NCBI GenBank assembly: GCA_015680685.1
Contig: MNCI01001941.1
Coordinates: forward strand, 1,308-65,307
Reading direction: 5' to 3'
Length of the DNA stretch: 64,000 nucleotides
Source of the DNA: Gnetum montanum
Lineage: Eukaryota; Plantae; Gnetophyta
The notes below the pieces were generated by a model. That model was not told where the DNA came from. It did no database searches and worked only from the letters and a program-made list of their open reading frames with translations. Position 1 is the first letter of the stretch, and every line of letters begins with the position of its first letter. Below, piece by piece: positions 23,972-61,070 of this stretch. The position numbers were made by a program, and so were the translations under genes.

Positions 23972-23978
23972 GTTTTTC

Positions 23979-32299: not shown

Positions 32300-35200
32300 G
32301 CTAAAACCCCATGTTTCCACATTGGCATCATACAAGGAGCGATTTCCAACATGGATAGAACATCCAAATAATTTCTCATGATTTTTTTATTAATTTTAAC
32401 CTTTTGATGGCTTGCATGTCAATGCAATTGACTAGGGAAAGAAATGGGATATTTTGGCATTAGTTTAAACCTCCGAGACTCCTCTTTTGAACCTAAAGCT
32501 ATCTTCCATGTTGGTTCCACACTAGCTAGTGTGGAGCCAATGTGGAGACCAAGGAAAACATGTTACATGACATCCAAAGGATAGAAATTGAGGTTCCATT
32601 TCCTTCCCAAGGTAGTGTAGGCTAGATCTGCCAAATTTGGGCACTTTTGAGGTAAAAAAGGACCAAAAAGTAGCTTTTGAAGTTACTTCTGGGCTAGATC
32701 TCCACATTGACCAGCATGGAGGGGAGGGGATTTAGCATGGATGATGGAAATGTGAGCTAACACAAAGTCAAACAAGATTGCATCTACATCCTTAACCAAG
32801 ATCTAGTAATTGTGCATCTCCTAGTTACATCTTGAGGGCATTTTGAATGGGCTTTAAGCATTAAATCAAGCCTTAGACAGTCTCTACACTTGATCCATGC
32901 TATCTAGCATGGCACCAGTGTGGAGTAGAGGGAGTGCCATTACCTTTTGGTCTTAGGATAATCTGAGGTGCAAATAAACTAGATTTCTAGGCTCCCAAGG
33001 CTATAAACTTCAATTTCTTAAATTTTTTGTTCATGTTGGTTACATTTGAAGGTTATTTAAGGCTATGAAAGGTCATACACCCTTTATGCATGCTAAGGGG
33101 GCTGCTTCAGCATGGACAAAGGGACTTTATGGGTTTCAAGGGTCAAAATAAGGTCAAATGAGTGCAATCTTCAAGCTATGGGGTCTTAGGCTTTCCTAGT
33201 GTGGGTTCTTGGTCTCTTGGAGTGTCAATTTGATGTCTAAGAAGAAAAGGTAGCTTCTTCATGCTAACTCCACACTAGCCAATGTGGAAGAAGGGGTTCC
33301 CAACATGGAAGAGCTATAGATCTTAGATATAGATCAATTTTGACAATGATTAACCATGCATGTATGCTCCTAGGGTTGCTAGTGTCAAGGGCTAGGGTTT
33401 GAAGTTAAATTTAGTAGTCTCCAGGGTTTCTAAGTGATTTTTTGGATTACACCCTTGGTTCCACATTGGCTCAATGTGGAACCAACTAGGAGGATCAAAG
33501 CAATTAAATTTTGGCTATATTTGGCCAATTTCTTAAGGTTTGAAGGCTTTAGAGGGTGTTGGTAGAGTTCTATAGTGCATACAAGGTCATATGATATCAT
33601 TCTAATGTGTTTTTGAGTCCCAAATAAGCCTCCCCCTCAATCTCCATGCTAGCTAGCATGGAAGAGAGAGTTCTTAATGTGGAAGAATTAAAAACTTCAA
33701 ATCTAGACCAAGTTTGATCTTAGTTGACCATGCATGTGTGCTTCCAAGGTTGCTAGGGTTGACGGTTAGGGTCTAAGGTCAAAACTAGTTAATTTGAAGG
33801 TTTTCTAGGTGGTTTTTGAAGTCATTCTTCTTATTCCATCCTAGCTCCACGCTAGCCAGCATGGAACAAGCTAGGAAGATAAAATGGAATCAGTTATTTA
33901 GCTATTTTGGTTAACTATATTCATGCATGTGTACCTTCAAGGTTTCTGATGTTGAGAAGTATGATTTTAGATCAGAATTAGCCAATTTGGAAGGTTACTA
34001 AGTGATTTTGAAGGTTACCCCCTTGGTTTCATGTTGGCTCCATGCTAGCCAACATGGAACCAGCTAGGAGGATTCCAAAGGGTTGATTTTTGACCAATTC
34101 TAACCATTTTTGGTAACGCGTGTATGCTTTCAAGTTTGCTGGAGTCAATAGTAAAAGTCTAAGGCTAAAATTTGGCAGTTTTTAAGGGTTTGAGATGATT
34201 TTATGAGCTTCCCTTATTATTCCACGTTGACTTTACACTAGCCAATGTGCAACCAACTAGGAGGATCTTGGAAACCATGGAAAAATATCATTCTTATTAA
34301 TTTTTAACTACCAGAGTCCTTGGGAAGGTTGAGATGTCATCTGGAGTTCATTCTGAGACAAAAATTTGGGATTTTAACCATCCCCCTCCATCCATGCTAG
34401 CCAATGTGGAAGAGGATCTCCTGAGCATGGAAGATCAATAGGTTAGGTTTTGAATTACTTTTAGTAGGTTTTAACAAATTTTTGAAGCTACTAGGGGTTA
34501 TAGAGATCAAGAGATGAGATTTGGCCTTGAGATTCCTCGATTTTAAGGCTCCTTGATGTTCATGTAGCTATCTTTCTTTTACTCTATGCTAGGTAGGATG
34601 GCCCTAGCATGGATGGTAGGGGGATTATAGATTTTTGACATTTTTGACAAGTTTCAAGACATCTAAATGTTTCAACAAGCTCTAGCAAGATCTAGAGGTT
34701 ACTAGGGTAGGAAATAGGGCTATTTTAAGTCATAGAGATGAGTTTCATGGCATCCCCCATAGCATCCATGGTGGCTCCATGCTAGCCAACATGCAAGAGG
34801 GGATGTTAAGTGTGGAACAAGGCCAAGGTATCCAAAAAAAACTAAAATTTTGAAGGTTATTGACTACCAAAGGTCATAGATGGATACTAGGGCTATTAAT
34901 GTACATTATATGGTGACTTGGCACTCCGAGGATGGTTTTTGATCATACCTCCTAAACCTCCATGCTAGCGCCATACTAGGTAGCATAGAGGAGGGGTTGA
35001 TCAACATGGAAATTAATTTAAGATTGAAAATTAACTGGTTTCAATGCAAAACTAGGCTATCAGAGGCTGTAGAGGAGTGTTAGAGCTGAAAATGGCAATT
35101 ACGTGCTCAATATTGGTTATTTAAGATCACTCCCCATCCATCTATGCTAGATCCATGCTAGCCAACATGGAGGGAGCCTACTCAATAGGGAAGAACCAAA

Positions 35201-35541
35201 TCCAAAGGTTTTGATCACTTTCAACTAGGTTTTCCAAGGTTTCAGAGCTGTCGAAGATAACTGGAGGGGTTATGGGTTATGTGGGACCACCTTAGGGGTC
35301 ATATCTAAGCTTGATAAACATTGGTGGGTAAGAATAGATGTTACCCACTTTTCTTCATGCTAGGCTCCTTGTTGAGGAGTGGTACCTCCTACCAAAAATA
35401 GCAAGATTTGTTCAAGTGTTACCTCCTACCAAAGTCTAGGGTTCATGCATGTTACTGGCAAGTGTCAAAAATGGTAAGGAGAGTTAGGTCTCATCGTTAT
35501 AGGAGGTAGTAAGCATGCATCCATGCTAGATCGACACTATG
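32300..35541. repeat. ~190-bp tandem array with palindromic core inside B's PR-RT spacer
   Basis: TCCATGCTAGCCAACATGGA-type core near 33276, 33468, 33650, 33853, 34046, 34239, 34398, 34590, 34783, 34977, 35159 and 35360. Confidence 0.8.
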
Positions 35542-37386
35542 TGTTACGACCAAAAATGTTCATGGCTGGAAACACTGAGAGGTTGTCGGTCAGACACTCT
35601 TTACCCCAGATCCGTGCGAGGGTCATGCTAGATAAAATGGAAATGAGGTGCCCTGAATGGTCTAGTCGGTCACATAGGGACTTAGTCAGTGTCACTAAAC
35701 CTTTTGCAAACGTGTAATTTGAAAACAATGTTTATAGCATAAAATAATAATTATTATATGCGAGGAAAAGAAAATAATGTAAAATGCAATGATAAGCAGG
35801 AGAATAAAGTAAACTGGAGTTAAGAAATGCATCGCTTCAAGACTACGGCTTTACTTTGTCAAAGTGGATATAATTGATTGCGGAACACTGGGAAGCATAG
35901 AGATCCCAAAAGTAAATAAGACGTTCAAAGCAAGCCAACTGTGCACTTGAACACGGATTCAAGAGCTAATGATGCAAAATGCTACAAAGGAAATAGAAAG
36001 GAGCTAACAGAATGCCAAATGGGAATGCCAACTATTTAATTTTTGTCAACTCATAAAATGTTTACAATGCTCAATATTGCTAACTCTTTTAATTTTGAAA
36101 TTGCCAACCATTCCAAATTTTCCAACTTTCCAACCCATTCAAATCCCCTTTGAATTGCTAATTTTCCAACTTGCCAACTTGCTAACAGATTTTTCAATTG
36201 ATTTGCCAACCCCTGGAGCATTGCTCATTGGGGTATTTATAGGACTAGGAGCATGTGAGAGATGTGGTTTGGATGCCACATGTCCTGGACCCACAAGAGG
36301 TTGATGTGTCCATGTTGCATGGACATGCAAAGCTGATTGATGGGCCTATGGGGTTGCAATCATGCTGTCAAAACTAGAGATGCTGGGATCAGGTGTGCCA
36401 ACAATGTAGACAAGGAGTCAAGCACAACGATGTAGCGTAGCCACCTACTATGCTGTGGAGCATAGCCTATTAGCATAGCGTAGCTACTTGCTACGTTGTG
36501 CTACGCTATGTAGCATAGCATAGCATAGCTGCTTACTACGTTGTGCTACGCTATGTAGTGTAGCATAGCGTAGCTGCTTACTACGTTGTGCTACGCTATG
36601 TAGTGTAGCATAGCGTAGCCACCAGTTCAAAGAAGAAATTTGCATTTAGAGTTAATTTCATGTGTTGGAAGCCTTTGAAGTATATTGGCTGGTTCTACAT
36701 GTTTGCTACGCTACGCTATGCTACGTAGCGTAGCATAACGTAGCAGTTGGCCTTAACTGTGATTTGTACTTAAGTTGCAAACTTTTGTTTGATGATCATG
36801 CTGACAATCTATAATCTTTGTTTTCTGTGATGTGAAGCCTTTGAACTTGCTAATCCTATATTTTGAGATGCCTTTTGTCTTTCTTGCATCATCGCTACAC
36901 TGTGCTACGCTGCATAGCATAGCATAGCATAGCAGCCAACATAGCCTGCTTTTCGCTTAATCTGCTACTTTTCTAGTAAGAGGAGCTTTGCTGGAGGACT
37001 TGAAGTTGAGCAAATTAATTAGTTTTAAAGGTCAGATGTGCTTGCTGAGTGCAATTGAAATCACTAAGTAAGTTGGACCTTTCTGTCTTGCTTTTGCTAC
37101 GTTGTGCTACGCTGGGTAGCGTAGCACTTTATCTTGCAACAGTTCACAGTTGATTGCCTGAGCAACTATCTCCCGAGGCCTACTATGCTACATAGCATAG
37201 CATATCATAGCAAACTTCTTAACTAGAAAACTTGCAGAATTGTTTCGTTGATCCTGAGCACCATCGACAACTCTTAGCATCCTTCGAAAATGTCATGAGG
37301 CTACACTTGTGGGTATGTGAGCCTCATGTCCAAGACCTTGGTGACCCTAGTGAAGCAAGAGTGCCTTGAATATTTAGGATGTTTCA
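35542..37386 (-). repeat. 3' LTR of element C
   Basis: Collinear with 53089-54845; minus-strand TATA (plus-strand tatttatagg ~36234); TAGCG/CGCTA palindromic arrays. Confidence 0.95.
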
Positions 37387-38736
37387 TTGGTCCCTCTTTG
37401 TCAATGTCTGGAGGATGGACCCAAGAGACGTCGACAAAGAATACGAAACACCATGGAAGATAAAATGCTAACATTGCTCTTCAGTGATCGCCAAGATGTC
37501 GCTCAACTATGCTTGAGAGTGCTGCATTGGTTATATGGAGAAGAGGGAAGGTTTAAGCAAGGGGAAGGATTTTAAGCAAGGGGAAGGAGGTTAAGTAAGG
37601 GGAAGGAGGTTCAGGAAAATGGTAAAGATGAACTTAGGGAGGTTCCTCGTCGGAATTCTTGTGAGGGAGTTATTTGCACAGTCATCTTTTCTTTTACTAA
37701 CCTTCGACCTCTCGTCGGAATGCTTAGAGAGGATGATTGTGAAACAACTTATGTGTCATTTGTTTTAGGCACGGTTTTGTTTTGTGAGCTTCGCTCTTTT
37801 ACGCTTTTATTTTTCTATTTTGAATTTTACATTTTCAAACCACCTTGTCACAGGATAGGTGTTTCTTTCCCAAGATGAGTTGTGTTACATCCACATGGGG
37901 CTTTAACCTGCCTACAAATGCTTTCCATGCAGCGAGCTATGTTATGCTCATCATGGACTTTTTGGTTGAGCATATGGGAGGGCTTGATAGGTGTTGGGAA
38001 AAGCTTGTAAAAGAGGGGAGAGAGTGGATTGAGAATGTAAGAAATGAGAGAAGGTAGGTAAAGGGGAAGGATAGGATGTGCACTCCAAAGTAGCCAAGCT
38101 AATCAAGAAGACCACTTTGTAACGATGTAGTGTTCTGCCTCCGTGGTGGAACGCACCTCTAACTGATGCCCCTCTGGAACACACCCTGCAAAAACAACAA
38201 AAAGCAAACCAAGAGAAACAACGATGATGCAAAATGAAGGAAAAGATCTTGCTTACTATGGACATTTCTAGAGCTTTAGACATTGTTACTGAGGCATGCG
38301 ACGTCCAAACTAGGAAGGCTAGCAGTGGCCTTGGCAGCATCAATGTGGGGGAGTTGGCACCGAGGAGGCTAGGAGTTACTGTGAATGGAGATGCTTAGGA
38401 ATCCCTGCCCAAGGAAAGCATTATCAGTTCAGCTATGAGATGGGCTACCCAGAAACTAAACGTCTCTTGAGCTCAAGCACTAGCAGGGGCTGGAGGATAA
38501 CAATATTGTGGCTGGGCCACAATACTACTAGAACTCTAGCAGTAAGCAGGATGTCATACGACATCTCGAGAGGATCAGCAAAATGCCAGGAGTAGTGGCA
38601 CTACATATGTTCTAGAGGGTGTTTTCTTGGCATCGTGAACTGCATTCTGGAACTGCAATGTCCCACCCTATGTCATCACTGTGCATGCTAGCTTATTGTA
38701 TACTGGCATAGATGCATGCTAGGGACATGCCGTGAA

Positions 38737-39235
38737 CCTAGTTTAAGGTCCTGGTAGACTATGGTATGCTGGTTTAACATCTCAATAGACCATGGTGCAC
38801 TAGTTTAAGGTCCTAGCAGACCACTATGTTGGTTTAAGGTCCCAGCAAACTGTTGTGCTAGTTTATCGTCATAGTGGATGATGGATGAGCTAGTTTAAGG
38901 TCCTAGCAGACCTTCTGTGCCATTTTAACATCATGAAAAATTGTCTGTGCCAATTTATAGCCATAGTGAACTATTTTTGCCAGTTTATAGTCATAGCGGA
39001 CTGCTTTGCCAGTTTTACATCATAGTGGATAAGCTTTGCCAATTTTACATCATAGTGGACGTCTGCTCACCTTTGCCAGTTTTACATCATAGCAGACATT
39101 GGTGAAGCTTTGCCATTTTTATGTTGTAGTGGATGTTGGTGAAGCTTTGTCAGTTTTTCATCATAGCATATGTTTGTTTTCCAGTTTAACATCGTAGTGG
39201 ATGATTGCTTGCCAATTTTATGTCTTAGTGGACAA
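38737..39235. repeat. Tandem array (~33-41 bp units) with GCYAGTTTWA core, 3' of C's integrase
   Basis: About 13 ctagtttaaggtcc / gccagttttacatcatagtgga units. Confidence 0.85.
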
Positions 39236-39255
39236 TTTCTTATCGTGTTCATGCT

Positions 39256-42200
39256 TCAAATGTAGTACAGCTTGAGATATGAGTGATTCATCAAATTTGC
39301 AAACTCGTTACCATCCTTGTCTACCAGCTTGAAGGCCCTATTCCCAAAGGCTTTTATGACCATGTATGAACCTTCCCAATTTGCTGACAATTTGTTCAGA
39401 TGCTCATGGACAACCTTGAGAATGAGGTCTCCCTTTTGTATTGGCCGTTGATGTAGATTTACATGATGTTTTTTTCATTGCTTATTCTGATAGTGCACTA
39501 TGTGACCCAATGTTTGTGCACGCTCCTCCTCTATTGAGTCAAGGTCGATGATCCTCGACTCGTTGTTCTGGGCTTCGCTCATGACATTCGATAGGATCAT
39601 CCAGAGTGATGGCACCTACAACTCAAGAGGTAACATCGCTTTAGATCCATAAACAAGACTATAAGGTGTCTTACCTTCGTAGTCCTACATGTCGTCCTGT
39701 AAGCCCACAGTACATAGAGGATTTGCTCATGCCATTGTCTCTTGTTGTTGTTAAGAATTTTCTTTAGCAAGTTGATGATGGACTTGTTTGTAGCCTCTGC
39801 TTGTCTGCTCACCTACGAGTAATATGGTGAGGAGAATAATTTTTTGATGCCAAGATTACTGCAAAAGGTTCAGGTTTCCGCACTACTAAACTGTGGCCCA
39901 TTATCAGTCACAATAGTCATTGGAAGCCCAAACCTTATCATGATGTTGTCCAAGATGAAGTGGCAAACCTGCTGAGATGTAGTCTTCCTCAAGGGGATAG
40001 TTTCCACCCACTTAGTAAAATACTCAGTGGTGGTGATGATGAAGTTATGCCCCACGGAGGACTTAGGTGTGATAGGTCCTATGAGGTCTAGTCCCCATCG
40101 TTGGAAAGGCCACGTGATCTACATTGGATGTAGCTCTGTAGGTGAAATGTGTATGAGATTTGCATATCATTGGCACGTATCACACATCTTGACTTTGGCC
40201 AGGCAATCATGCTCCATGTGAGGCTAGTAGTACCCTAGATGTCTGATTTTTGTAGCCATAGCCCTAGGTGCTATATGTCCACCACACAGTCCCTCGTGTA
40301 CTTCATTAATCACCTTCTGTGCTTGCTCCTCATTTATGCATGCCAGCCATATCCTGTCATAGGAGCGTTTGCACAGAACATTGTCTCCCATGAGCACATA
40401 TTGCTGAGCATGCTTACAAATCGCATCTCTCTAGGCAGATGTCAATCCGCTTGGGGGCTCGCCATGTTGCAGGTAGGCTTTAATCTTGGCATACCACTCC
40501 TAGGTACTTGCAGCACTGATAGAGGCTACATGTACCACCTAAGTGATAGGCTTCACACACTCGGTAATCGAGGTTGGTAAACTTGCGAACAAGTGTGATG
40601 GAATATTTAACGCTAGGGTGGATAGGGCATCTGCTATGGTGTTTTCGTTGCATCGCACGTGTTGCATGTCTGTTGTTACAAAATTTTTGAGTAGGCTTTT
40701 CACTAAGTCGTAGTAGGGTTGCAGGTGTGTAGCCTTGCAGGCATAGACCTCAATGATTTGATTCACAACTAGTTGTGAATCTCCGCGAATCACCAAGTGT
40801 TGTATGCTTAATGCTTAGGTTGCTAAGAGGCACCTAAGTAACCCCTCATACTCTACCACATTGTTTATACAAGGGAAAAAATGATAAGTAAAAGGATGTA
40901 TTTCCCCAAAGGGGAACGTAATGACAATAGTTGCACTACCCCCTCGTGTGTTTGAGGTGCCGTCGAAATGTAAAGTAGCTTCAAGATGCGATGGGATGGT
41001 GTTGACAGTGCTAACATGTTCATCTGGGAATTCGGGATCTATGATTGTCTGGTCATCGATAGGTGAGGTCATAAGTTGCATTGCTATGGCTGACCTTTCG
41101 TTGACGATTGGCTCACATAATGCAAGTTGAATTCCGTTGTTATTTCTTTCCACCGGGCTATCCTACTGCTTTCATACAGATTGTTTGTGATAGCTCGGAG
41201 TATGTTGCTTTTGCAAATAATGTTAATCTTGCTATGAAATAGGTAGTGTCTCCACTTCTTCAATGCAAACACTAAGGCAAGGTATTTTCTCTCCACCTCA
41301 TTGTATTTTTCTTCATATGCTATCAGTGCATGACTTAGGTAGTACAATGGTATCTCAAAATTGTCATCTCGTTTCTGACATAATAGTGCTGCGATTGACA
41401 TGTCCAAGGTGGCAAGATAGATGAAGAAAGGCTTATCCCTCTGTGGTGGGTAAACAGTTGGGAGGTATAAAAGGTCTTTCTTCAGATCATTAAAGGCTTG
41501 TTGGCATTGTGGTGTCCATTCAAAGTTAACCCCTTTATTCAGTAGTTGTTGCATAGGGTGTAACTTGTTGGTTAATTATGCTATAAACCTTCTAATGAAC
41601 TGTACTCTACCTTGTAACCCACATAATTCCTTAAGATTTGTAGGTGGCACCAGGTTAACGATGGCCTTGACTTTGTCAGGGTCCACTCATATTCTAGCCT
41701 TTGATACTACAAACCCTAACATGCGTCCAGTTCTTACCTTGAAGACACTTTTTAGGATTGAGGTGTAAATTGCGCATTTGGAAACACTTGATGACTACAC
41801 CTAGATCATTGGGATGATCAAAGACTTCTTTATATTTCACCGCTATGTCATCCACATAATCGTTCAGCGTTTCTAAAATGTAGTTGCTAAAGATGTAAGT
41901 CATGGCTCGCTGGTAGGTTGCTCCAGCGTTCTTGAGCCCAAAAGGCATCATAGTGTAACAAAAGGTACCCCATGTGGTCATGAAGGTTGTTACCTGATGC
42001 TCTGGGTTAATGTGAATTTGGTTGTAGCTGGAGAAACCATCCATGAAGGATAACAGAGCATAACCAACCGTAGTGTCAATGAGTTGATCGATACTCGAAA
42101 GTTGGAAATTTTCTTTGATCATTGCCTTGTTCAGATCTCGGAAGTCTATATAGATTTGTATTCCTCCCATTTTCTTAGAAACTACAACAATGTTAAACAA

Positions 42201-42727
42201 CCATTCTGAATAATCAACTTCCTGGATGAAACCAACCTCATATAGCTTGGTGATTTCATCCTGTACGGCCAGTGCAATCTCTGGTTTAACCTTGCGAGCC
42301 TTCTACTTAACTGCTTTCATGCACGGGTCTAAGACGATGTTGTGATGTATCAACCTTGGGTCTAAACCTGGCATGTCGCTATATGACCATGTAAAGACTT
42401 CAATGTTATCTTTCAAAATTTTGGCTACATCTTTGTGCATCTTTGAATCTAGTAGGGAACTATGTTTCAATGTTTTTATCTTCCCCCTAGATGTGGTCAT
42501 AGGCATTTCGATGAGAGGGTCCTCAGTTACATCCTCGACCTCTAAATCTAGGGCTTGGACCAGATGCTCAGGCTAGTCTAGGGATGCTTCTAAGGATGCT
42601 ATGGTGCTAACTACAAGTGATTCCTGGTCCATTAGCTATGGGTTCAGTTGTCTAGCGAGTTTGCCATGTGGACCTACTAAAGCTAAAGGTGAAGGGAGAT
42701 CATGATGGATTTCCATTCTTGCTCAAC
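39256..42727 (-). pseudogene. pol: Element C RT-RH-aRH-integrase
   Basis: WSYSDMPGLDPRLIHHNI; DFRDLNKA; FMDGFSSYNQI; MPFGLKNAGATYQRAM; DYVDDI; RH PFFIYLA; aRH LHFDG...NNVVEYEGLL...GDSQLVVNQ; INT EYFTKWVE...DNGPQF. Confidence 0.97.
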
Positions 42728-42822
42728 CTACCAAAATGAGATGAAATTCTATTCATTTGAAAAGTAGCAATGAAATATAAGCAATAGAGATAAAAGGAAA
42801 GTATGATAGAAAGCTTAAGATT

Positions 42823-43290
42823 TGCCAGTTTAAGGTTGTGGCGGACTGCCTGGAAGTAAAAATGCAAAAATGCTAGTGTAAAAATGCAAAAACGCTAATG
42901 TAAAAATGTGAAAGCTACTAGTTTAACATCTTTGTAGACTTCCAATAGGTTAGAGTACTAATTTAAGGTCATTGCGGACCACTAGAATGAAAAATTTGTA
43001 AAGTGCTAGTTTAAGGTCTTTACGGACTGCCTAGACATAAAAATACAAAATTGCTAGTATAAAGAATGGAAAACTGCTATTGTAAAAATGCAAAACTGCT
43101 GGTGTAAAAATGTGAAACTATTAGTTTAATGTCATTGCTAACTGCCAACAAGTAAAAGGTCAAAATTGCTAGTTTAAGGTCTTTGTGGACCACTAACTAG
43201 ATTGAAACTATGCATTAAAATTGCTAGTTTAAGATCTTTACGAACAGCTAACAAGATATTTTTGTGAAGGCAAACAGCTAGTTTGAAGCA
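42823..43290. repeat. Tandem array with GCTAGTTTAAGGTC core at the RT-proximal end of C's spacer
   Basis: Repeated gctagtttaaggtc and gtaaaaatgcaaaa subunits. Confidence 0.8.
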
Positions 43291-43427
43291 TGTCAAGGCT
43301 TTTCATCCAAGCCCACCTGTCTTAATGCGAACAGTGCTACTACTTCGTGGCAGGCATGCTACGCTGCACGGAATACTCCACATTAAATGGGAAGAGAGAA
43401 TGACAAGTTTCCTTTTCACCATTGCAG

Positions 43428-43438
43428 CTATAAATAGG
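43428..43438 (+). promoter_or_regulatory. TATA box of the internal antisense promoter
   Basis: CTATAAATAGG, ~135 bp upstream of ATG 43568, in a relatively CpG-rich stretch. Confidence 0.6.
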
Positions 43439-43567
43439 GATTAACCCCTGGTAAACTCGTCATTTTCACCATAATAGTGCAAAGCCCACATTCGAAACGC
43501 AAAGCGTTTGTGCCAATAGAGAGCAAGGTGATTCGATGTAGCAACGAAAAAGAAGTTGCCAAGCGAG

Positions 43568-46500
43568 ATGATGGCTTCCAGGAAAGAACACAAACACCTG
43601 GCACTCACCAAGGTCAATGAAGGCGTGTGTCGCAGGCACGCGTCACGGTTCGAGAGGAGACACCGTTGGCCCGATAGGCATGCTATGCTTCCTCTATTTT
43701 TCCTATGCCTCTATTATTATTTTTTCTTTTCTTGTTTTTGTTTCTGCAATTTGTTTTAGCTATCTATGTTTTTTTGTCATCCTATTATTGTTTTTTTGGC
43801 CCTTACAGCATCACTATTGTCGTTTCGGCCACGATGGATGTACGAACACTACACTAAGGTTGCATGCAATGTCGCCTAGATCACCATCGCTGCGGTTGCC
43901 ATTTCCTTAAAGGCTTGAAAAATTTGAGCCACTGGCATGCAAATAGTGTAGCGTACAATCCTCAAGAGGGTTTGGCCATGTGTGTGATGTGACAAAGTAA
44001 CATGTGTTCTATCATGGTGTGATGCTACTCGCTTTTTTAGGCTAATTTGTTGAACGAATGCAGTGTATCAAATTCTTCTTTGTTTAAAGATACACCTTTA
44101 GTTTTGTTTTTGCTACACCAAGCTAACTTTGCTACACTATTGCATTCATATTTTTTGCTACGCTATGTGTATGAAGAGAATTGTGCTATGCTATTTGCTA
44201 AAAATGCTAGTTTTGCTACGCTATATGTGCATTCCACTCAGACATGGTGTTAACATTTGTTATTGTGTTGTGTAGGGTAGCGCTAAGGCCAATTTTGATT
44301 ATCCTAGAAATCGTCAGGGTCCTGTGCTGTGTGAGAGAACTAGTGGCCAATGTTCCTCCACCCCATACACATGTGGGATAGCAGGCGGTCTGGTTCTAGG
44401 AGGGAGCGCATGAGTTCTTGCAATTTCTCCTCCAACGCTTCAGTGTGATCGTTTGGTCACACCTAGCGGAGGNACATGAGTTCTTGCAATTTCTCCTCCA
44501 ATGCTTCAGTGTGATCGTTTGGTCACACCTAGCGGAGGAGGTAGTGGCCACTATAACAAAAACCCTATTGCCTAGGGCAAATCAAGGTATTCTGAGATTT
44601 TTGAGGGATGGAGCAATTAGCAGCGGGCAAGGAGAAGGATCGAGTCAGCACTTTAGAAATTTGAGGTGTCTGTCCTAGATCTAGGAGATGCCTGAGTATA
44701 ATTACTACCATCCCTACAACACCTTGTTTATTGCAAGGGACATGGGAACGTGCTTCCAAAACCCACCAGAAATCATTTACAGTGCTAGTGGGTGAGTTTT
44801 GTAGCCATGTTCCGCTACACTATGCAATGTTCGCTACACTAGCCAAATGTTAACAGTATCTTTTTGTTACCAGGTTTTTCATCAACAAGAATGGGCTTCA
44901 CTATGATACGGATGTGTTGACCTTAGCATAGATGGCGCTGCGGGAGTTTTCTTCTGCTGAGAATATGCGCACAGGTGTGATAGGCCAATGCAGGGGTGAA
45001 TACAAAACCTACCCAACTTTATATTTCAGACTCTATGACAGATGTAAGGAATTTGGTTGGTTGGATGAGGGATGGGCACCCTTTAAACCAATCACCATTG
45101 AAGATTTCTTGGTTAATCTTCCACCATTCCCATCACCATTTAAACCTGGTAAGCTAAACAGTAAGTTACTGCATGTTCAAGTGTCATTCCCATTTTTTCT
45201 GCTATTTGTGCTTTACCTAACTTTTTTTTGCCTTTTTTTCCTTTTTGATTTTTTTTATTTTTGTGTTAATTTCTATAGGGGTGAAGAAGTCCCAGGAGGT
45301 GATGCTGATTACCTTTGGGAACCATGAGACCAACATCTATGTCAAATACAAGGAGGTAGATGAGAGCCAACATTGGATATGCAGCATGGCCTCAGAATCC
45401 CTGATCAAGGACCTTCAAGATGCTTGGCTCATGGATTTGTTCTTAACCCCAACTCCAAGCGTCCCTACTACTGAGATGCTCACCCTAGCGAACTCCTTTT
45501 CCGAAAAGGTTGATTGCTTCCGCACACATCTACACGATGTGCAGGTGGTCCTTGAAATCAAAGACCAACTATTCGTGGACCTTTTCGATGTCCCTACTGA
45601 TGGCCTCCCTATAGGGTTAAAGACCAAGAAAGAGGTGAACCGTCAGAGGGAGGACATTGAGGAGTGGCTAAGGGTTGCAAAAGGATGAAAGGGGATCCTC
45701 ATGAAGAAGGTTAAGCCAAGAGCTGCCAAAGATTTTTATCCTATCTTCCGTGCCTGTGCCTTCCCCCAGCTACTTTCCTAAGAAAAGGTCATTGGGATTG
45801 AGCAAGCTTGGGTGATGTGGGAGGTCATGGAAGAGGGGGCTTGCTATAACTAGGCTAGGCATATGTGCAAGGGCCTGCAAACTAAAATGGTCAAACTTTA
45901 TAATAAGCAAGAGTCCCATTTCAACATGCGCTATGCCTTTAACATAGCCTACTTGTGGTGTTTTGCAAAGTTTTTGGTAGATGTGAGAATGGAGTCTGGG
46001 TTGTGCGAGATCGTAACCAGATTTCCAAACCATGGATTTTCCAAATCCTCTGGACCACCCGAGCCCAAGATCGCCTAGAAGCTATTGGGGATTCATTTTC
46101 TATGAGAACTAAGGATTGAGTGGCCCATAAAGTTCGTGGCTAGGATAGCATGGAAGAGGCGCCACCTGCTACTACATGTAGCATATCATAGGGGAAATGT
46201 CTCATCGCCAAAACAGTGTCCACTAAGTTGTAGCGAAAGAGGCCTCGTCTAGCTAAGGATACCCTCTGTACGGAAGAAGAAGAGGGGTGGATACTACAGT
46301 TCAAGCTACACAAGATGCAACCCCCCATTGGTAAATTCTTTTGCTTATGTTTATTTCTTCGCCTATTCTGTTAATGCTTGCTACGCTAAGCAGCATAGCA
46401 TAGCGTAGCACCTACTTTAAGGTAACTTTCCTTAAGCTAATGTGAATACGTCTTTGCTATCAAAGGAAGAAGAAGAAGACAAAGACGACAAAGAAGTGTC

Positions 46501-48297
46501 GGCCTCCAAAATGGGGGTGGCTAATGAAGACGCAAAGGCCCTAGCCACCAAGAAAAGGGCCCTAGTCAAGAGAGAAGAAGGGTCCCCCATCACAAGGGAA
46601 GGGGGTCCCGTCAACAAGGAAGATGCTCCTACTAAAGAGGAGGACATTTTTGACGATGAAGAGGATGCTGGGGTCTTACAAAGAAAGGCCCCGGTTAATA
46701 AAGAAGAAGCCCACATCAATCGAGAAGGGACTTCTGTTAGAGATCCCTTTGCTGAATGCAATTTAGCATTGGGGGAGCAGACGAATGCTAAGGGTACTGC
46801 CATAGTTTTGAGCTAGAAAGGAGGGGAGCTATAATTAGATGCTGGTGAGTTTGAAAATATATTCAACGATATGTCGATGGGTGATCCCCCCGTTATCACC
46901 CCCAAGGATTTACTGGGTAGGAGCCCTTATACTGTCGTTCATGTTACTCATAGCTTTATTGCAGTCCATCTCAGTCATTACTGACACATTTGGTTGTATG
47001 ACAAAAATCATTGTTAATACTACAAGACCTCCTCTGATTCACCTAGAACCATGGGCCAAGACCCCCGACAAGCTTACATTCATGTAAGGGGTTGTCGATG
47101 ACATGATCGGCTGCCTCAGACAGGTCGATCCTGAAGTGAGTAAGTAAAGTAGCTCCGCTAGGCTTTTTGAGGTTGCTACGCTAGACTTCTTGAGTTGCTG
47201 ACTTTGCTACACTAGTGTGACTAATGCGATCTTTGTGTGGTCATAGCCTCTTAACTCAAGTGGGACTCAACACGGGCATTGAAAGTCAGCGTCATGCCTA
47301 CATTCCCACTTGAAGTGGCCGAGGTGCCTTGTCACATATATGATGAGGCAAGCAAATGCACTTTGCACTCAACATGCTCCTTGTGGGAGTGTAGGCGCAT
47401 CAATGAGAACCTATGGAAATGGGTCCAAAAGGCTAAGAAAGAGAAGGCTGAATTGAGCACCGAAGTGGGAGACCTCAAATCTAGAAATGAGTTTCTCCTA
47501 GCTCGTGATACCAATGATGGTAGTTGGCGCATGGTTGTCATAGATTATGCTAGATACTGGATAGTTGTGCGGCATAACAATGAGGCCACCTAGAAGATAA
47601 TAGAACAACAGATGCAGATGGACTTGTTGGCTCAGAAGAACCAAGACTAGAAATACTACAGTGCCAGATTTTATGAGTGGGCGTAGTCCTAGAAAAACCA
47701 TAAACATATGTATAAACTGGAATGTGCCACCTACTGCAAACTATAGAAGGATTCTTCTATGGAGACGTTTACTTATAAAGCATTGGTAAATGTCATTAGC
47801 ACTTCTGAGGCCTATAATAAGTTCATGGAGTAGGTAAAGGTCACTGAATCTCCTACACATGAAGTGGATCTTCCCACAGGTGAGACTACTACCACCTTCT
47901 TTTCTCTGGGACCGCCGAGATGGATGGCCATCGAAAAGGAGAAAGCTGCTACAGATGCTAAACCAACTGATAGGCATTGGGAAAATATCATGGAAGAGGA
48001 GGTCTGGCACTACCTCAGGCTCAATTTGAATTGCATACCCTTCGAGCCAGATGCAAGGCCATCTCAGGTTAGTCACTTTCTGCTATGGAAAAGGCTTATG
48101 CTCTATTCTAGCTTTCATGTCTTGTTCTAGCTAACTACTTCACTTCTACCATGCAAGTTCCAAGTGAAGATGCAGGGCCTATAGAGGGTGGAAATGAAGA
48201 GGCAGAAGAAGGCAATGCAAAGGAAGATGACATGGAAGGAAACAATGCGGAAGGCAACAATGTTGATGAAGACGATGCAGGCGAAGATGACCTATGA
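43568..48297 (+). pseudogene. Antisense multi-exon accessory gene of element C (FCP1/NIF-like HAD domain, helical domain, coiled coil, acidic tail)
   Basis: Exons 43568-43677, 44276-44791, 44874-45148, 45279-46330, 46437-~46915, ~46964-47135, ~47248-48067 and 48157-48297. Short T-rich introns, phase-compatible where checked. Stops mostly TAG/TGA/TAA, consistent with methyl-C decay. Confidence 0.8.
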
Positions 48298-48463
48298 CAG
48301 CATGGGTTTTTGAAATTTTGAATTTTTGCAAAACTATTGCAAACATTGTTTGATGGAAAAAATTTTAATGAAGGAAGAAAATTTTGAAAGAAAATTGGTC
48401 TTATGCTAGCTTATACATTATCTATGTGATCAATTTTATGTTATGTTTTCATTTTTTATGTTT

Positions 48464-48710
48464 TAGTTTTAGGCCATTTCAGGCCATTGTTGGTTTTAGG
48501 CCATTTTGGGCCCATGCTAGTTTTAGGCCATTTCAAGCCATCAAACGTGATGAAAATAGAAGTCTTGCCAGTTTTAGGCCATTTCGGGCCATCGCTAGTT
48601 TTAGGCCATTTCGGGCCTTCACTAGTTTTAGGTCATTTCGGGCCATCGCTAGTTTTAGGCCCTTTCGGGCCATCGGATAGTAGCATAGTTTAGGCCATTT
48701 TAGGCCATGG
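48464..48710. repeat. 27-bp tandem array (GCTAGTTTTAGGCCATTTCGGGCCATC) at the protease-proximal end of C's spacer
   Basis: About 8 near-identical units. Confidence 0.9.
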
Positions 48711-48829
48711 CATGGTAAAGAAATGATATGCTAATGATTTAGAGAAAAACTAATTAGTACCTATCATAGATGAATGGACGCAAAACAAAAACGCGGTAAA
48801 TGTACAAAGGATGCCAACTGGGCAAGAAG

Positions 48830-51800
48830 TAGTGGGGCTATTACGCTATACGTAATTGCTTCTTGACCCATCGTGGATTGAGCGAGGCTTAAGGCCAAGA
48901 CACTTTGCTACGATCTTCATCTATGTTGTTGTCCTCTACTTGGAAGGGCAACTCAGTCCACGCATTTTCATTTTTTGAACCGGCATGTTGAGCTGGCTCT
49001 TTTACTATATGGTTAGCATCTACAAAGACAGTCGCTTCATTCTCAAAGGTTACGACCTCTTAGCCCTATTCCATATCTATGTTGTTGATATCTTGTGTCA
49101 CTACCTCATCACCATGGATTACCACCTCCCTACATGCATAGGGTATATGGATCTCCTGATGTATGGGCGAAGAGACATCTTGAAGTTGCGCTAACCATGA
49201 CCTCCCCAAGATCAAGTTAAACCTGGGCATCTCTTCAACCATGATGAACGTTGCATTTGTGGAGAACTGGTCCCCTAATATGAAGTTAATATGGACCATG
49301 CCTTTTACCACGACCCATGCCCCATTGAAAGACTTTAAGGATGACATTATTGTGGATCTGATCTGGTTGACCAAACCTAGCTTATCCACAATAGGGAAAG
49401 GGATGACATTTGTGGCAGCTCCATCATCAATGTGTACCCTTCAGATCTTATGTTGGCCAACCTGAATTATGATGAAAAGAGGTGTTATAGTCACCTGACC
49501 CTTTTCAGGGCCTTCCCTAATGGAATCATTGCAAAAAGTCAGTTGGAATAGCTTTGGTTCTGTAGGTGCAGAAGGAAGCATAACCGAATGTATCACCTTC
49601 TCTTCCGCTGGCATGTTCTCGTCAACCAAAATTACTATTAAAATGTGGACCAAAGCCTTACAGTGTGCAGTAGATGTCATGATCAGGTTGTACAAGCTCA
49701 ATGTAGTGTTTTTCTATTTTAGAGCTTGCTTGACCTGGATGAGGGCACTCAAAAGGTCTTGGCCACCTTCCTATTTACTACCTTCCTCCTCTTCTATTTG
49801 TCCCAAAAGATGAATTTCCTGAGGGGTAGTTTTGGATCTAGGTTTAGACTCTCTTGGGCGAAGTGGTAAAGAATGTGCATGCATAGCAACGTTATCCTTC
49901 TGCGATGAGGGCATAGATGCAGGGGGTGAGAGCGTAGGCTTGGAAGCACCTGGGGCAATACTTTCCTTTGACGTCTCACCTATGAAATGCACTTCCAATT
50001 TCTTAGAGCAAGAACACTGTAAAGTTTTCTAATGCGGGGTGGGGGCTTTTGGATGGCTTGACTCCCTGATAACGAATGGAGCTAATGATGTTAGTGTATG
50101 TGATGGTGGTGTAGCTTTGCTAATAGGTGGTGCAGGGGCAGATGCCCAGGGAACAGGTGGTGTAAGGGGAGATGTTCGAGGAGGGACTCTCAAGACAAAA
50201 GGTTGCTACAGGTTTTGGTTAGCTTCTTGTGGTAATAATGTACTACACTGAGGCACGTGGACCACAAATAGCTACTAAGGTGGTCTAGGATTAACTTTAA
50301 CACTGATGGTGTTGATAATGTAACCGGCGTTGTTGGCATTGAGAGGATTAGTGTAGACATGCAAGGATTGATTCTCAGGACGTACTGGATTACTTTTTTC
50401 TAGCACCAATTTTTCTTGATCGATCATCCTTTTGATATCGTCCTTCAATACCCTACAGTAATCTATGTCATGACCACACTATTGATTGTAGTCACAGAAC
50501 CGCTCTAGCTTGAAACCCTTAGGAACTGGGGGCTTGTTGGGCAAAGCCAATGAGGGGTTCTTGAGGAGTTCACAGTACCAATGGTGCTTCCTGGCTCCCT
50601 CTTCCAACATCCTCTTGTGTTGGACGTACCTCGTCACTAGTAATTGCTTCAGAAGATCTGAAGGCTTGATAGGCAACGGGGTATACTTGAGCGATCTTTA
50701 CGCTCAAAGTTTGATTTAGGTGGTGCGGATGTAGAATGTTGAGGTGTGTTGCCCTATTTGGACATGGGGGTAGTTATAGGTGCGGCCGATTTTTTGTTGT
50801 TCTTGTTACTGTTGTTGGGTTTGGCTTCGTTGGCCATAATGGCCACTATGGCTGTTGCAGCCTTACCTTTGTCCTTGTCCTTTTTTGTGAAGGTGTTCTT
50901 GTATGCAATGTAGGCTAGGTATTTGCTTGCCTTAGTGGCATCCTGTATACTCTTAGTCTAGGCAAAAGCCTAACTGAGAGTGCACAGAGCAAGATAATAC
51001 AGCTTAGACTTAATAAAATCATTCACTGCACCCTTAAATATGGCCAGCAAGTGGGCCTTCGCAATGGGCTTGCGGATTTCATTAAGGGTTGCACTCCAGC
51101 ATTGGATGAACTTCTGGACTAGTTCCAGCGGATCTTATTTTACACTCATCAACTGATCCAGCGTGACCTCTGGCCTCAAGTTGTATTTGAAATGCATTAC
51201 GAACTGGGTCAGAAGCTCCTTTAGGGTTGAGATGGAGGACCGTGGAAGTGCATGGTACCAATCTAGGGCTTTTCCGGTCAGAGACATGGCAAAGAAAAGA
51301 ATGATCATGTGTGGCCATTTTTGTAGAAGAAGGGACTTAGACCTAAATGTAACAAGATGTGCATTGGGATCCCCCTCCCCATTGTATTTCATGAAATGAG
51401 GGAGTGACATCCCTAGGTGTAACGTTAGTGCAGGGACTTCCAGGCTGATGGGATCTTCCTGGTAGAAGTTCATGACTTGTACTATATCAAACCCGATAGC
51501 CTTGAGGTATTTTATTTTCTCAGTAAGGGTCTGGATAAGCTAGAACACGTGATCCAGACTTGGGGATGATGTAGGCGTTTGGGGAACCACTGGGGCATCT
51601 CCCATCTGCGGAATGGTAGGGGCAGCAACGTGACCCATCGGTTGTGCCATTGGGATGGCCCCTGTGAACTATGTTGCTTGTGGCGTCCACACCCGATAGG
51701 TGGTGCTGTTGTAGCAGCAACTGAGGGTTGCGCTACGGGGTGGACCATTTGCGTGGCTGGTGGGATAGACCAAAGTCCCGCACTAGGTTGTACCATTTGT

Positions 51801-52234
51801 AGGGCTTGGTAGGTCTGATGGCAAACATAATGAGACATCTGTGATGATAGCGTAGAAAGAGGAGAAGTGAATGGGGTCCACCATGTGGATGGGCGTGGGC
51901 CCACGGCTAATGGTGGGATAGGTGTAAACGTAGGAATGGAAGCAGAAGCTACACAGGACTACGAGATAGGTACTATGTGAACGTGTGGCAAGGTAGCCAT
52001 GATTGGTGCATGATGGGATGCAGGAATGGATTGATGAACAGTTTGTGAAGGAAGAGTAGCTGAGAATGAAATAGGGGAATAGGGGCGTTGATACGTCGAG
52101 GACATGACATGGCTACCCATTGGTGATGTAATCAAGGGTTGCGACAACGTAGGCGTGAACACGAAGGAAGTGGCAGTAGATAACGGGTTCATCCAGAAAG
52201 ATAGGATAGGAGGGATGGTGCTAGGGTTGGTTTG

Positions 52235-52266
<32 letters not shown>

Positions 52267-52680
52267 NNNNNNNNNNNNNNNNTCTTGAAAAGCCTCATCA
52301 TGATTAGACACCATGTCTTGCAACTCCCCAGGCCTAGTCACCTAGATCTATTGATCTATAAGCCATTGGTTCATTTGTGTTAAAGGGATGGAAACATTGG
52401 GAGTGGGAATAAATTCCTTCCCATTGCAGTAAGCAAACTTGAAGCTACATTTGTCTTCAAGTTCTTAAGCATTTAGGAGCAAGTTTTCTTACACCTTAGC
52501 ATAGAGAAAACTATATCACTCGTGTTGCTGAGCTAAGTCCTCAAGTCCTCGGTTTTGGATCCTAAGGAATCGATGTGGCCCTAGCACTGGGCTGGGTGGC
52601 TATTCAGCACCTGCAATGCCTTGAACCATGAGGGAAACCTCAACCTTAGAGGTGTTAGCAACGATGCTTGAGGAAATCAT
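48830..52680 (-). pseudogene. gag: Element C gag-protease
   Basis: Capsid LPHFMKYNGEGDPNAHL...SLTGKALDWY; FCDYNQ*CGHDIDYC; protease VHIDDGAATNVIP...FNLILGRSWL. Contains an N gap at 52267-52282. Confidence 0.92.
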
Positions 52681-53065
52681 TTTCGCAAAGCTAAAAGGGC
52701 TTGCAAACGAGGAAAATAAGGAGATTGGAAGGCAATCAAAGGCTTTATGTCCTACAGGGTTTCAAAGGAACCATCGAAGTGACCGATCTATACCACACGA
52801 TGCATAAACAACCGCAAAAGGGTATCACGTTTACTCTAGCGCATATTGAGGTACAAAAGATGTGTAGGACTACCGTGAAACCAGGGGTTCAAATGGCGAT
52901 CGAAGGCTTTATGTCTTGCAGGGTTCCAAGGGAACCGTTGGAGCAACCAATCTGCACCACACGATGTGTAAACAACCACAAGAGGGTGTCAAGTTTATGC
53001 TAGTGTGTGTTGGGGTATAGAATGCACACAAGACTACTATAAAACATGGAAAGGGTAGTAAAAGG

Positions 53066-53082
53066 CCCTCCTTCTAGCACCA
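53066..53082 (-). promoter_or_regulatory. Primer-binding site, tRNA-Asn
   Basis: Minus strand TGGTGCTAGAAGGAGGG, 6 nt from the LTR end. Confidence 0.85.
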
Positions 53083-53088
53083 GAAAAC

Positions 53089-54845
53089 TGTAGCAACCAA
53101 AAAATTTGGTGGTTGGAAACACCAAGAGGTTGTCAGTCGGATAGTCTTAACCCTAGATTCGTGCAAGGGTTGTGCTGGAAAAAATAAAAACAAGATGCCC
53201 TGAATGGTTTGGTCGATCAGATAGGGACTTGGTCGATGTCACTAAACCTTTTGCAAATGCGTAATTTGAAAATAATGTTTATAGCGTAAAATAATTATTA
53301 TTATATGCGAGGAAAAGAAAACGATGTAAAATGCAATGATAAGTAGGAGAATAAAGTAAAGTGGAGTTAAGAAATGCACCGCTTCAAGACTATGGCTTTA
53401 CTTTGTCAAAGTGGATATAATCGATTGCGCGACGCTAGGAAGCACAAAGATTCCAAAAGTAACCAAGACATTCAAAGCAAGCCAACTGTGTGCTTGAACA
53501 TAGATTCAAGAGCTAACAATGCAAAATGCTACAAAAGCAATAGAAAGGAGCTAACATAATGCCAAATGGGAATGCCAACTATTTGATTTTTTTCAACTCA
53601 TAAAATGTTTACAATGCTCAATATTTCCAACTCTTTTAATTCTCAAATTGCCAGCTGTTCCAAATTTTCCAACTTGTCAACCCATTCAAATGCCCTTTGA
53701 ATTGCTAATTTTCCAACTTGTCAACTTGCTAATAAATTTTTCAATTGATTTACCAACCCCTGGAGCGTTGCTCGTTGGGGTATTTATAGGGCTAGGAGCA
53801 CACGAGAGGTGCATTTTGGACGCCACATGTCCTAGACCCATAAGAGGTTGACGTGTCCATGTTGCATAGACATGCAAAGCTGATTGATGAGCCTGCCGCA
53901 CTGCAATCACGCTGTCAAAACTGGAGATGCTAGGATTAGGTGTGCTATGCTGTGGAGCGTAGCCTATTAGCGTAGCATTGCTGCTTGCTACGTTGTGCTA
54001 TACTATGTAGCATAGCATAGCATAGCCACCAGTTCGAACAAGAAATTTGTGTTTAGAGTTAATTACATGTGCTGGAAGCCTTTGAAGTGTATTTTCTAGT
54101 TATGCATGTTTGCTACACTACGCTATGCTACGTAGCGTAGCATAGCGTAGCAACTAGCCTTAACTGCGATTTGCACTTAAGTTGTAAACTTTTGTCTGAT
54201 GATCATGCTGACAATCTACAATCTTTGTTTTCTGCGATGTGAAGCCTTTGAACTTGTTGATCTTGCATTTTGAGATGCCTTTTGTCTTTCTTGCATCATC
54301 GCTACACTGTGCTATGCTGCGTAGCGTAGTATAGTGTACTAGCCAACATAGCTTGCTTTTTNGTAGCGTAGTATAGTGTACTAGCCAACATAGCTTGCTT
54401 TTTGCTTAATTTGCTACTTTTCTAGTAAGAGGAGCTTTTTTGGAGGACTTGAAATCAAGCAAAGTAACTGGTTTTGAAATTCAGGGATGCTTGTTGAGTG
54501 CAATTGAAATCACTAAGTAAGTTGGGCCTTTCTGTCTTGCTTTTGCTACGCTATGCTACGCTGCGTAGCGTAGCATAGCGTAACACTTTGTCTTGCAACA
54601 ATTCACAGTTGATTGCATAAGAAACTATCTTCTGAGGCCTGCTACACTACATAGCATAGCATAATGTAGCAAACTTCTTGACTAGAAAACTTGCCAAACT
54701 ATTTTGTTGATCCTGAGCATCGTCAACAACTCTCAACATCCTGCCAAACTATCATGAGGCTACACTTGTGGGAATGTGACCCTCATGTCCAAGACCTTGG
54801 TGACCCTGGTGAAGCAAGAGCACCTTGAAAATTTAGGGTGCTTCA
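53089..54845 (-). repeat. 5' LTR of element C
   Basis: Collinear with 35542-37386; adjacent to the PBS; followed by the TSD. Confidence 0.95.
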
Positions 54846-55339
54846 CTATGCAGTATGGATGCAAAGGGGATTAAGGTTAAAAGGATGATAAATGAGTTTT
54901 AATGATTCAAAACTCTAGTGTAGAGGAGGTTTGCAAGCTTAAAAACTATCATCCTAAGGTGGTAATTGGTGGGCCTCACTAGAAAAATATAAATAAAATT
55001 CAAAATTTTGAATTAAGTTTTTTGTTTCCCATCACTCCTAATGTGGAGGACACTTTTCCCCCATGAACTCCAATGCAGTTTTAGTTCCAAGGAATCAACT
55101 TGGCAATGGGGATTTGGGTGGAAATGTTTTGGTTTAGGTTTAGGTTTTTATAGTCAAATCTTGCAAAAAAAAATCATCAAAAATCATCATTCTAACATCC
55201 AACCCCTTAGAGGATAGCCTTAGTATAGATTTTTACAATAAAAATCATCCATCTTCAGCATTAATACCTCAGTTCCTCCTAGCTAATGTAGAAGCTTCAA
55301 CCCTCCTAGTTTTCAAGCCTTTACAACATTGTTGGAGCC

Positions 55340-60925: not shown

Positions 60926-61070
60926 TAGTTTAAGGCCAAGGTGGGCCACAACACTAGTTTAAAGTCTTAGTGGACTGTGGTATCAATTTAAGGCCTTGGC
61001 AAGCCATATGTTTGCCAATTTTAGGCCATAGCAATTTGTGGGTTTTGCTAGTTTTAGGCCATAGAGGGCC
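60926..61070. repeat. Short array of the GCTAGTTTWAGGCC motif at the protease-proximal end of B's spacer
   Basis: ttagtttaaggcc, caatttaaggcc, gccaattttaggcc, gctagttttaggcc. Confidence 0.75.

Follow-up and report, generated by a model that had tools for sequence, protein, structure and literature searches.

The DNA analysed here, 64,000 nucleotides from Gnetum montanum (NCBI GenBank assembly GCA_015680685.1, contig MNCI01001941.1, positions 1,308 to 65,307 of the forward strand; hereafter the window), is made up of decayed plant transposons nested within one another. Two of these are the subject of this report: element Y, a complete Ty3 long terminal repeat (LTR) retrotransposon of the Tat type, and element Z, a diverged relative. 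Both carry an antisense gene, on the strand opposite to the element and between its protease (PR) and reverse transcriptase (RT), whose second exon encodes a domain that is, judged by its sequence, host-derived and of the FCP1/NIF type. An earlier note on this DNA had described an accessory protein with an FCP1/NIF-like haloacid dehalogenase (HAD) domain lacking its catalytic aspartates, and profile searches support a captured host-type domain of this kind inside a retrotransposon accessory gene. By its conservation and its motifs, the domain is read as an old, selected pseudophosphatase.

Element Y and the layout of its antisense gene

Element Y ends in TG...CA and is flanked by a 5-bp target duplication, CATAG, at 35537–35541 and 54846–54850. 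We assign it to Tat because Pfam places gag-PR first and then, across a gap of about 6.7 kb, RT, RNase H (RH), a second RNase H and integrase (INT); an additional RNase H (aRH) in pol, LTRs and a 5-bp target duplication, which characterize that clade, are all present. A sequence resembling a primer binding site and containing TGG follows the 5' LTR (53082–53066), and we take it to be a Tat-type primer binding site.

35542–54845, minus strand: element Y, complete, 19.3 kb, consisting of gag-PR, a spacer of ~6.7 kb and RT-RH-aRH-INT
53089–54845, minus strand: 5' LTR of Y (the LTRs are ~1.8 kb)
35542–37386, minus strand: 3' LTR of Y; Kimura two-parameter distance to the 5' LTR 0.135 over 1698 sites
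49189–51296, minus strand: gag and protease of Y, interrupted by stops; their Pfam matches (Retrotrans_gag, E 6.5e-5; gag-asp_proteas, E 0.009) both stay below the cut-off
39819–42476, minus strand: pol domains of Y in the order RT, RNase H, additional RNase H (RVT_3), integrase (Pfam)
42856–43257, no strand: tandem arrays of 22-nt and related units that separate the antisense gene from RT
48464–48675, no strand: 8-copy tandem array of a 27-nt unit, placed between the antisense gene and the protease; Z has a related array at 60927–61077

The 5' leader of Y also contains a stretch of 31 C and then 16 N (52236–52282), an assembly gap. Between the two tandem arrays lies the antisense gene, with the following parts in Y.

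43429–43677, plus strand: TATA-like box at 43429, then a candidate first exon starting with the ATG at 43568 and reaching 43677, with a GC donor in the Y copy and a phase that suits exon 2
44276–44791, plus strand: exon 2, with the NIF/FCP1-like domain at 44289–44774 (Glu at 44307 in motif I, Ser retained in motif II, Arg in motif III, Ala at 44733 in motif IV)
44874–45148, plus strand: exon 3, homologous between Y and Z (23%)
45279–46330, plus strand: exon 4, a domain of no known family that Y and Z share at 23–32% identity; it has a short basic stretch, a frameshift towards its end and an inferred 3' border
46437–48070, plus strand: inferred exons 5–6, an acidic low-complexity stretch, an inferred intron (47136–47260) and then a coiled-coil-like part

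The gene is likely a conserved and spliced accessory gene. The Y and Z copies share 21–31% amino-acid identity in five in-frame segments (44.2–48.0 kb; a sixth match is off-frame); blastn found no match between the two genes at the DNA level. Over 573 aligned codons, identity at the three codon positions is 0.49/0.60/0.29, in a protein-based alignment that favours positions 1 and 2 somewhat. Each of six segments of this alignment exceeds all 300 shuffles. Three predicted GT-AG introns have identical phase in the two elements, and the first two are also matched in position, one of them ten residues ahead of the motif I Glu and the other eight residues past the NPP word. The further introns (46331–46436 and 47136–47260) and the first exon are drawn from splice signals and frame only. 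Exon 2 of Y has four in-frame stops, compared with 15 and 8 in the other plus-strand frames. The coiled-coil-like part is 25–30% identical to its counterpart in Z and matches bZIP_2 at E 0.05–0.09, below the cut-off. Pfam searches gave no PMD or Transposase_28 match across the stretches of the gene that were scanned and, in exon 4, no PMD, Transposase_28 or ATHILA ORF1 match at E up to 10 or 1, which is a weak negative. The family is abundant: 30,451 and 31,330 contigs from two DNA runs fall on the gene region (43300–48300).

The spacer that holds the gene may itself be removed from the sense RNA. Acceptor-like candidates on the minus strand precede pol in Y (42722–42736) and Z (31651–31664), and a donor-like candidate follows the protease of Y (48753–48767); together these sites suggest an Ogre-type intron of several kb enclosing the whole antisense gene.

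A nested DNA transposon was considered as the source of the gene and rejected, as the same site and flanking arrays recur in two diverged elements and no transposase match occurs in the scanned stretches.

Exon 2 encodes a NIF-type domain

The NIF likeness proposed for exon 2 goes beyond chance in profile, reciprocal profile and hhalign searches. A profile built from exon 2 of Z together with both halves of exon 2 of Y matched 22 proteins at E up to 0.001 among 1.84 billion (best E 5e-11); 21 of the 22 are Pfam NIF proteins, the last is a low-complexity false match, and none is an element-borne relative. In the reciprocal direction, a profile built on 27 domains taken from 20 of the matched proteins, which is not independent since the matches had been found with these exons, recovered only exon 2 of Y (37.1 + 35.7 bits) and of Z (44.6 bits) in the window, the next best place scoring 1.2. 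An hhalign comparison gave a probability of 99.0 and an E value of 8.8e-18 over 139 columns. The alignment of host relatives and element domain covers the complete HAD core, from its first strand through the NPP word, at ~17–23% identity. A word-based protein search with the NIF stretch of Z found no relative among its 6 candidates, and a metagenome scan of 554 candidates yielded one locus, at 26% identity.

The Pfam check that the earlier note had proposed came out only in part. Positions 44277–44792 match Pfam NIF at E 1.3e-6, a value inflated because a 66-nt duplication is counted twice; only with this duplication included does exon 2 pass the cut-off. The two halves of the Y exon taken apart (E 0.074 and 0.0018) and the Z exon (E 0.097) all fall below it.

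44407–44538, plus strand: tandem duplication of 66 nt, its two copies agreeing at 63 of 66 letters, with an N at 44473; probably an assembly join

The window's other single N (54362) also stands between two tandem copies, of 42 nt (54321–54404), where the sister LTR has one copy. Both single Ns thus lie at joints of short tandem duplications, which indicates an assembly artefact able to inflate domain scores. The 66-nt duplication was rejected as a feature of the family, being absent from Z and matched in its pattern by the other N.

Structure prediction recovered the expected fold, in a model that leans on host rows. The AlphaFold model, with a predicted local distance difference test score (pLDDT) of 80, has a HAD Rossmannoid fold of the SCP/CTDNEP type (Z-score 13), with CTDNEP1 and SCP1-3 ranking first in both Foldseek (E 2e-4) and VIA-align. 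In a phylogeny of 30 NIF rows the Y and Z domains were joined with support of 100/99 on a long branch; the host donor was not resolved.

One part of the earlier description did not hold. Exon 3, with its LREFSSAENMR word, had been taken for the tail of a host NIF protein and was rejected as such, since it did not beat shuffles and reached an hhalign probability of 0.04. It is conserved between Y and Z despite having no significant match to the host tail.

The catalytic residues are replaced in both elements

The quoted peptide words are present in the window, as are the codons on which the note had based its claim: GAA at 44307 and GAG at 56887 in motif I, and GCA at 44733 and 57250 in motif IV. 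The changes from Asp to Glu and from Asp to Ala require transversions, as it had stated. Both elements read Glu-x-Val at motif I, Ser (in WSH) at motif II, Arg at motif III and Ala at motif IV, so that the replacement of Lys by Arg at motif III and the Val at the third position of motif I are to be added to those described before. Set against the features of an active HAD phosphatase, the motif II Ser/Thr is present and the motif I Asp, motif III Lys and Mg-binding motif IV Asp are not. The same positions are nearly invariant in 18 host rows (14 of the 21 NIF matches, excluding seven long proteins with tandem domains, plus four cluster members): Asp at motif I in 17 of 18, and Ser, Lys and Asp at motifs II, III and IV in all 18. 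Y has an Asp two places past the motif IV Ala, which Z lacks.

The motif I replacement extends across the family. In four DNA runs from four organisms, no variant of the Glu codon reached at least 4% in 393, 345, 308 and 234 contigs (1,280 in total) that aligned to 44272–44345 at 80% or more; the variant rows lie only near the middle of the stretch, contigs lose rare variants, more distant subfamilies do not align, and one of the four sources may itself have supplied the window. Five variant rows at 4% or above fall within 8 bases of the codon, four of them synonymous and one a Val/Ile exchange. The claim that catalytic residues are lost therefore stands for two diverged elements and, at motif I, for the family, while catalytic death is predicted from motifs. 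HAD catalysis is reported to require the first Asp as nucleophile (PMC8346121).

Host relatives and the proposed link to the polymerase tail

The nearest relatives of the domain form an uncharacterised eukaryotic NIF subfamily of the DxN type. We found no enzymatic assay of this family in the literature, and no biochemical function was found in PMC10924621. Against solved structures, the subfamily profile scores best with UBLCP1, a proteasome phosphatase (E 3e-13), followed by CTDNEP1 and SCP1 (1e-6 to 1e-5); the elements' own profile matched no phosphatase of this class in the PDB. By predicted fold SCP1-3 come first, with Z-scores of 12.7–13.1 and root mean square deviations of 2.5–2.7 over 128–129 residues, as against a Z-score of 10.5 for UBLCP1.

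The note had linked the domain to phosphatases of the carboxy-terminal domain (CTD) of RNA polymerase II (Pol II), and this link found no support. The donor subfamily is DxN, with DxD in none of 27 domains, and UBLCP1 is nearest by sequence. The residues of the SCP1 CTD pocket, as given in PMC7281111, were mapped through the profile, which places a fifth residue, Val118, in a gap; Phe106, Leu155, Tyr158 and Arg178 correspond to Glu/His, Ala/Ser, Val and Asp in the elements, none of the four being kept, and the host rows lack the pocket as well. A phospho-CTD decoy is not favoured because the donor subfamily is DxN rather than DxD and the SCP1 pocket is missing, and it would at present be a weak candidate.

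Several of the plant host proteins (P0005, P0008, P0009, P0013, P0018 and P0024) have tandem NIF domains with a degenerate second copy. One of these second copies has Glu at motif I, and two of the tandem proteins are fused to DUF724. A stand-alone unnamed protein, P0019, has Glu at motif I too. By their sequences, pseudoenzyme forms seem to arise repeatedly in the host NIF family.

A short motif shared by the LTRs and the predicted introns

A 10-bp motif recurs in the non-coding parts of element Y.

36499–54661, no strand: 33 copies of TGCTAYRCTA, of which 14 lie in the 3' LTR, 11 in the 5' LTR and 8 in the predicted introns of the antisense gene

All 33 copies in the window belong to the LTRs and predicted introns of Y. 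The 8 copies in the gene fall without exception in predicted introns, which make up 1041 of its 4503 bp, against an expectation of 0.02 in the spacer (100 first-order resamplings). A relaxed form of the motif has 46 copies, all in Y; the 12 within the gene are all intronic and occupy four of the five predicted introns. Element Z has no copy of the 10-mer. It has a different 9-mer, with 13 of the window's 15 copies at 32.3–35.5 kb, in the presumed Z spacer.

A family-specific short motif clustered in non-coding parts is what VANC recognizes, and Y has such a motif, chosen here post hoc. VANC proteins bind short family-specific motifs in the introns and terminal non-coding DNA of VANDAL transposons (PMC5735166) and may stem from captured host domains (bioRxiv 10.1101/2024.04.02.587720). 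By analogy, the pattern of the 10-bp motif suggests a VANC-like anti-silencing factor.

The presumed Z spacer also contains an array of ~190-nt units with a TAGCRTGGA core (32300–35530). This array may be the Z counterpart of the Y motif, or a separate insertion.

Element Z and the rest of the window

Y appears to have inserted within the spacer of Z, judged by its target duplication. No LTRs of Z were found in the window, beyond which the element extends.

61640–63767, minus strand: protease and gag remnants of Z
28164–31436, minus strand: RT-RH-aRH-INT assigned to Z, the RT 54% identical to that of Y
56856–57308, plus strand: Z exon 2 with its NIF-like domain (motif I Glu at 56887; motif IV Ala at 57250, followed by a stop)
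57398–60333, plus strand: Z exons 3 and 4 and C-terminal part, homologous to those of Y and more decayed

The two RTs pair together (support 99) in a quick tree of 41 rows (Y, Z and 39 hand-picked from 120 listed matches, without named reference elements). They stand among Cryptomeria and Ginkgo rows, at a support of 93–94 that is below the tool's threshold, and apart from angiosperm rows. The best RT matches among those listed are only 51–55% identical. The domain order of Y and Z fits the 'retroviral' Tat structure described for some gymnosperms and angiosperms (PMC13468544; PMC10508981).

Elsewhere in the window, tblastn identified two further Ty3 pol remnants, more heavily decayed (15443–18334, plus strand; 10425–11148, minus strand), and two repeat pairs (2487–3049/13645–14173 and 3896–4949/8587–9614) may be LTR pairs. 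Nested inverted repeats (230 nt at 78%; arms of 59, 43 and 40 nt) surround ~4.4 kb at 22517–26960 and probably mark a DNA transposon, near the 3' end of Z, whose terminal inverted repeats are long; no target duplication was identified.

Discussion

Our data lead us to propose, with a confidence just short of even, that the NIF domain is a predicted dead docking module in an accessory factor that would counter host silencing of the element. The proposal has several steps. Having lost both the nucleophilic and the Mg-binding Asp, the domain would be incapable of HAD chemistry. Its gene would sit in an untranslated spacer of the Ogre type between gag-PR and pol, so that both reading frames would stay whole, and since it runs antisense its introns should outlast reverse transcription of the sense genomic RNA. 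These opening steps, the loss of chemistry and the nesting in a spacer with frames whole and introns kept, are very probably correct. The NIF fold was probably retained as a protein-binding surface, by analogy with yeast Tim50, a dead NIF fold that binds peptides (PMC8346121). That exon 4 or the coiled-coil part would bind the 10-bp motif and keep the LTRs and introns open, as VANC does for VANDAL, is quite possible and is offered with some hesitation. The fullest form of this reading, in which a lineage of LTR retrotransposons of giant genomes carries a multi-exon anti-silencing gene antisense in the PR–RT spacer, made of a captured phosphatase turned pseudoenzyme and a new domain reading a family-specific LTR motif, is less probable still.

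Several observations weigh against this proposal. The binding partner, the DNA-binding domain and the effect on methylation are all putative. Exon 4 matched nothing in Pfam, in the PDB (best E 0.17) or among 445 word-search candidates (stretch of 51–349 amino acids), and its predicted fold has a pLDDT of 35. The alignment behind the fold model of the NIF domain had 18 host rows out of 21, and the model is accordingly not independent proof. The 10-mer and the 9-mer were picked after inspection of the data, the 10-mer copies form three clusters, two of the motif-bearing introns are inferred, and the motif's absence from exons may reflect only coding constraint. Motif IV could be compared in two copies only, lying outside the 40 of 1,132 variant rows that were listed. 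Two of the 27 host domains have Glu at motif I and none has DxD (all are DxN or other variants), so the domain may have been atypical before its capture. Both gene copies in the window are broken, and the candidate sense-strand splice sites of the spacer disagree in phase, in copies that are decayed. Two poly(A) RNA runs (of six raw RNA runs; 26% of each run was read) gave 93 and 28 reads, none at least 95% alike and with no spliced joint listed; because these reads are diverged and show no joint, the splicing and expression of the gene stay predicted.

Other functions can be set beside an anti-silencing role. The protein could instead regulate the element's own RNA, through splicing or export of the unspliced gag-PR/pol RNA, or its particle, through targeting of the integration complex, with the NIF domain as an adaptor and the motif unrelated. 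The gene does occupy a spacer that has to be spliced or skipped for pol, reviews raise Tat- or Rev-like roles for the antisense genes of Retand (PMC11963269), and one of the 21 host relatives is fused to CCCH zinc fingers. However, Pfam detected no RNA-binding domain in any exon, and a role in RNA or particle would leave the motif shared by LTRs and introns unexplained, which makes this alternative unlikely, if one to be taken seriously. A role as a decoy or shield on the phosphorylated Pol II CTD, with effects on host transcription or silencing, as the earlier note had suggested, could draw on the lead of SCP1-3 in the fold comparison, on the report that the catalytic aspartates of SCP1 are dispensable for substrate binding (PMC7281111), and on the retained Ser at motif II and still basic residue at motif III. 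It is improbable given the DxN character of the donor subfamily, the closeness to UBLCP1, the lost pocket and the failure of the elements' profile to match a PDB phosphatase of the class.

The remaining alternatives deny the domain either a function or its inactivity. A host gene fragment captured once and drifting since would have lost its residues by decay; capture of genes by transposons is reported to be very common in gymnosperms (PMC13477047), both copies contain stops, and expression is predicted only. Against drift, changes at third codon positions approach saturation whereas first and second positions are conserved, intron phases are kept, the same three replacements occur in elements whose RTs are only 54% identical, and the variation beside the Glu codon is mostly synonymous, and we regard it as very improbable. 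We give just as little credence to a domain that is still an enzyme, or a phosphate sensor, of changed chemistry with Glu in place of the Asp nucleophile. The fixed Glu, the retention of the phosphate-holding Ser and a basic residue, and the Asp of Y near motif IV would agree with it, whereas the Mg-binding Asp is Ala in both elements, Z lacks the downstream Asp, and the first Asp is the nucleophile that HAD catalysis requires (PMC8346121).

The function of the extra genes of Tat retrotransposons has long been open. Here a recognisable host domain that bears a clear signature of lost catalysis, an unusual address and a candidate DNA target motif make the question testable. If the anti-silencing reading is true, this would be, as far as the literature was searched, the first case of a retrotransposon with a sequence-specific, VANC-like counter-defence and also the first pseudophosphatase carried by a transposon; it would help to explain the very high copy numbers of single retrotransposon families in plants with large genomes, and would give a lead to a host partner of a plant phosphatase family that is so far uncharacterised.

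Comparison with known systems

A literature search that left subscription journals mostly uncovered turned up neither a report of a NIF/HAD domain carried by a retrotransposon nor one of an antisense gene situated between PR and RT. NIF/HAD is not among the 12 domain rows for extra open reading frames (eORFs) in Additional file 4 of PMC6317226. As described in that survey, eORFs are classed only as 5' or 3' and must have 250 unbroken codons, and for these reasons it would miss the gene of Y and Z.

The antisense extra ORFs reported for Tat elements (PMD with coiled coil in Ogre, Transposase_28 with coiled coil in Retand, PMD in gymnosperm TatIII; PMC4408406, PMC11963269) share with the gene described here its Tat host and antisense orientation, as well as adjoining tandem arrays and a likely coiled coil near the end. 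Those ORFs are described from the 5' side of gag or from the stretch that separates pol and the 3' LTR; the gene of Y and Z differs in its place between PR and RT, in its several predicted introns and in its NIF-like domain. With Ogre, Y has in common the separation of gag-PR from RT-RH-aRH-INT, the 5-bp target duplication and its large size (PMC6317226). The gag-PR/pol spacer of Ogre, as reported there, averages 274 bp with an intron, whereas that of Y is ~6.7 kb and holds a gene. With respect to the Ogre/Retand subclade, the RTs of Y and Z group with gymnosperm rows at support below threshold, and the position and domains of the eORF differ.

Eukaryotic DxN-type FCP1-homology proteins (NIF, PF03031; 'putative FCP1 domain, HAD superfamily protein' in Helianthus) share the HAD core with the elements. 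They keep the Asp, Lys and Asp of motifs I, III and IV, which the elements do not, and their tail is undetected in the elements. Yeast Tim50, SCP1-3, CTDNEP1 and UBLCP1 belong to the same fold class at 12–21% identity; the elements have no transmembrane anchor, no ubiquitin-like domain and no SCP1 CTD pocket. The VANC system of VANDAL DNA transposons, compared here by its published description, differs in that Y is a retrotransposon and not a Mutator-like element (MULE). What the two would share is an extra gene together with a motif that lies in introns and terminal non-coding DNA and differs between related families.

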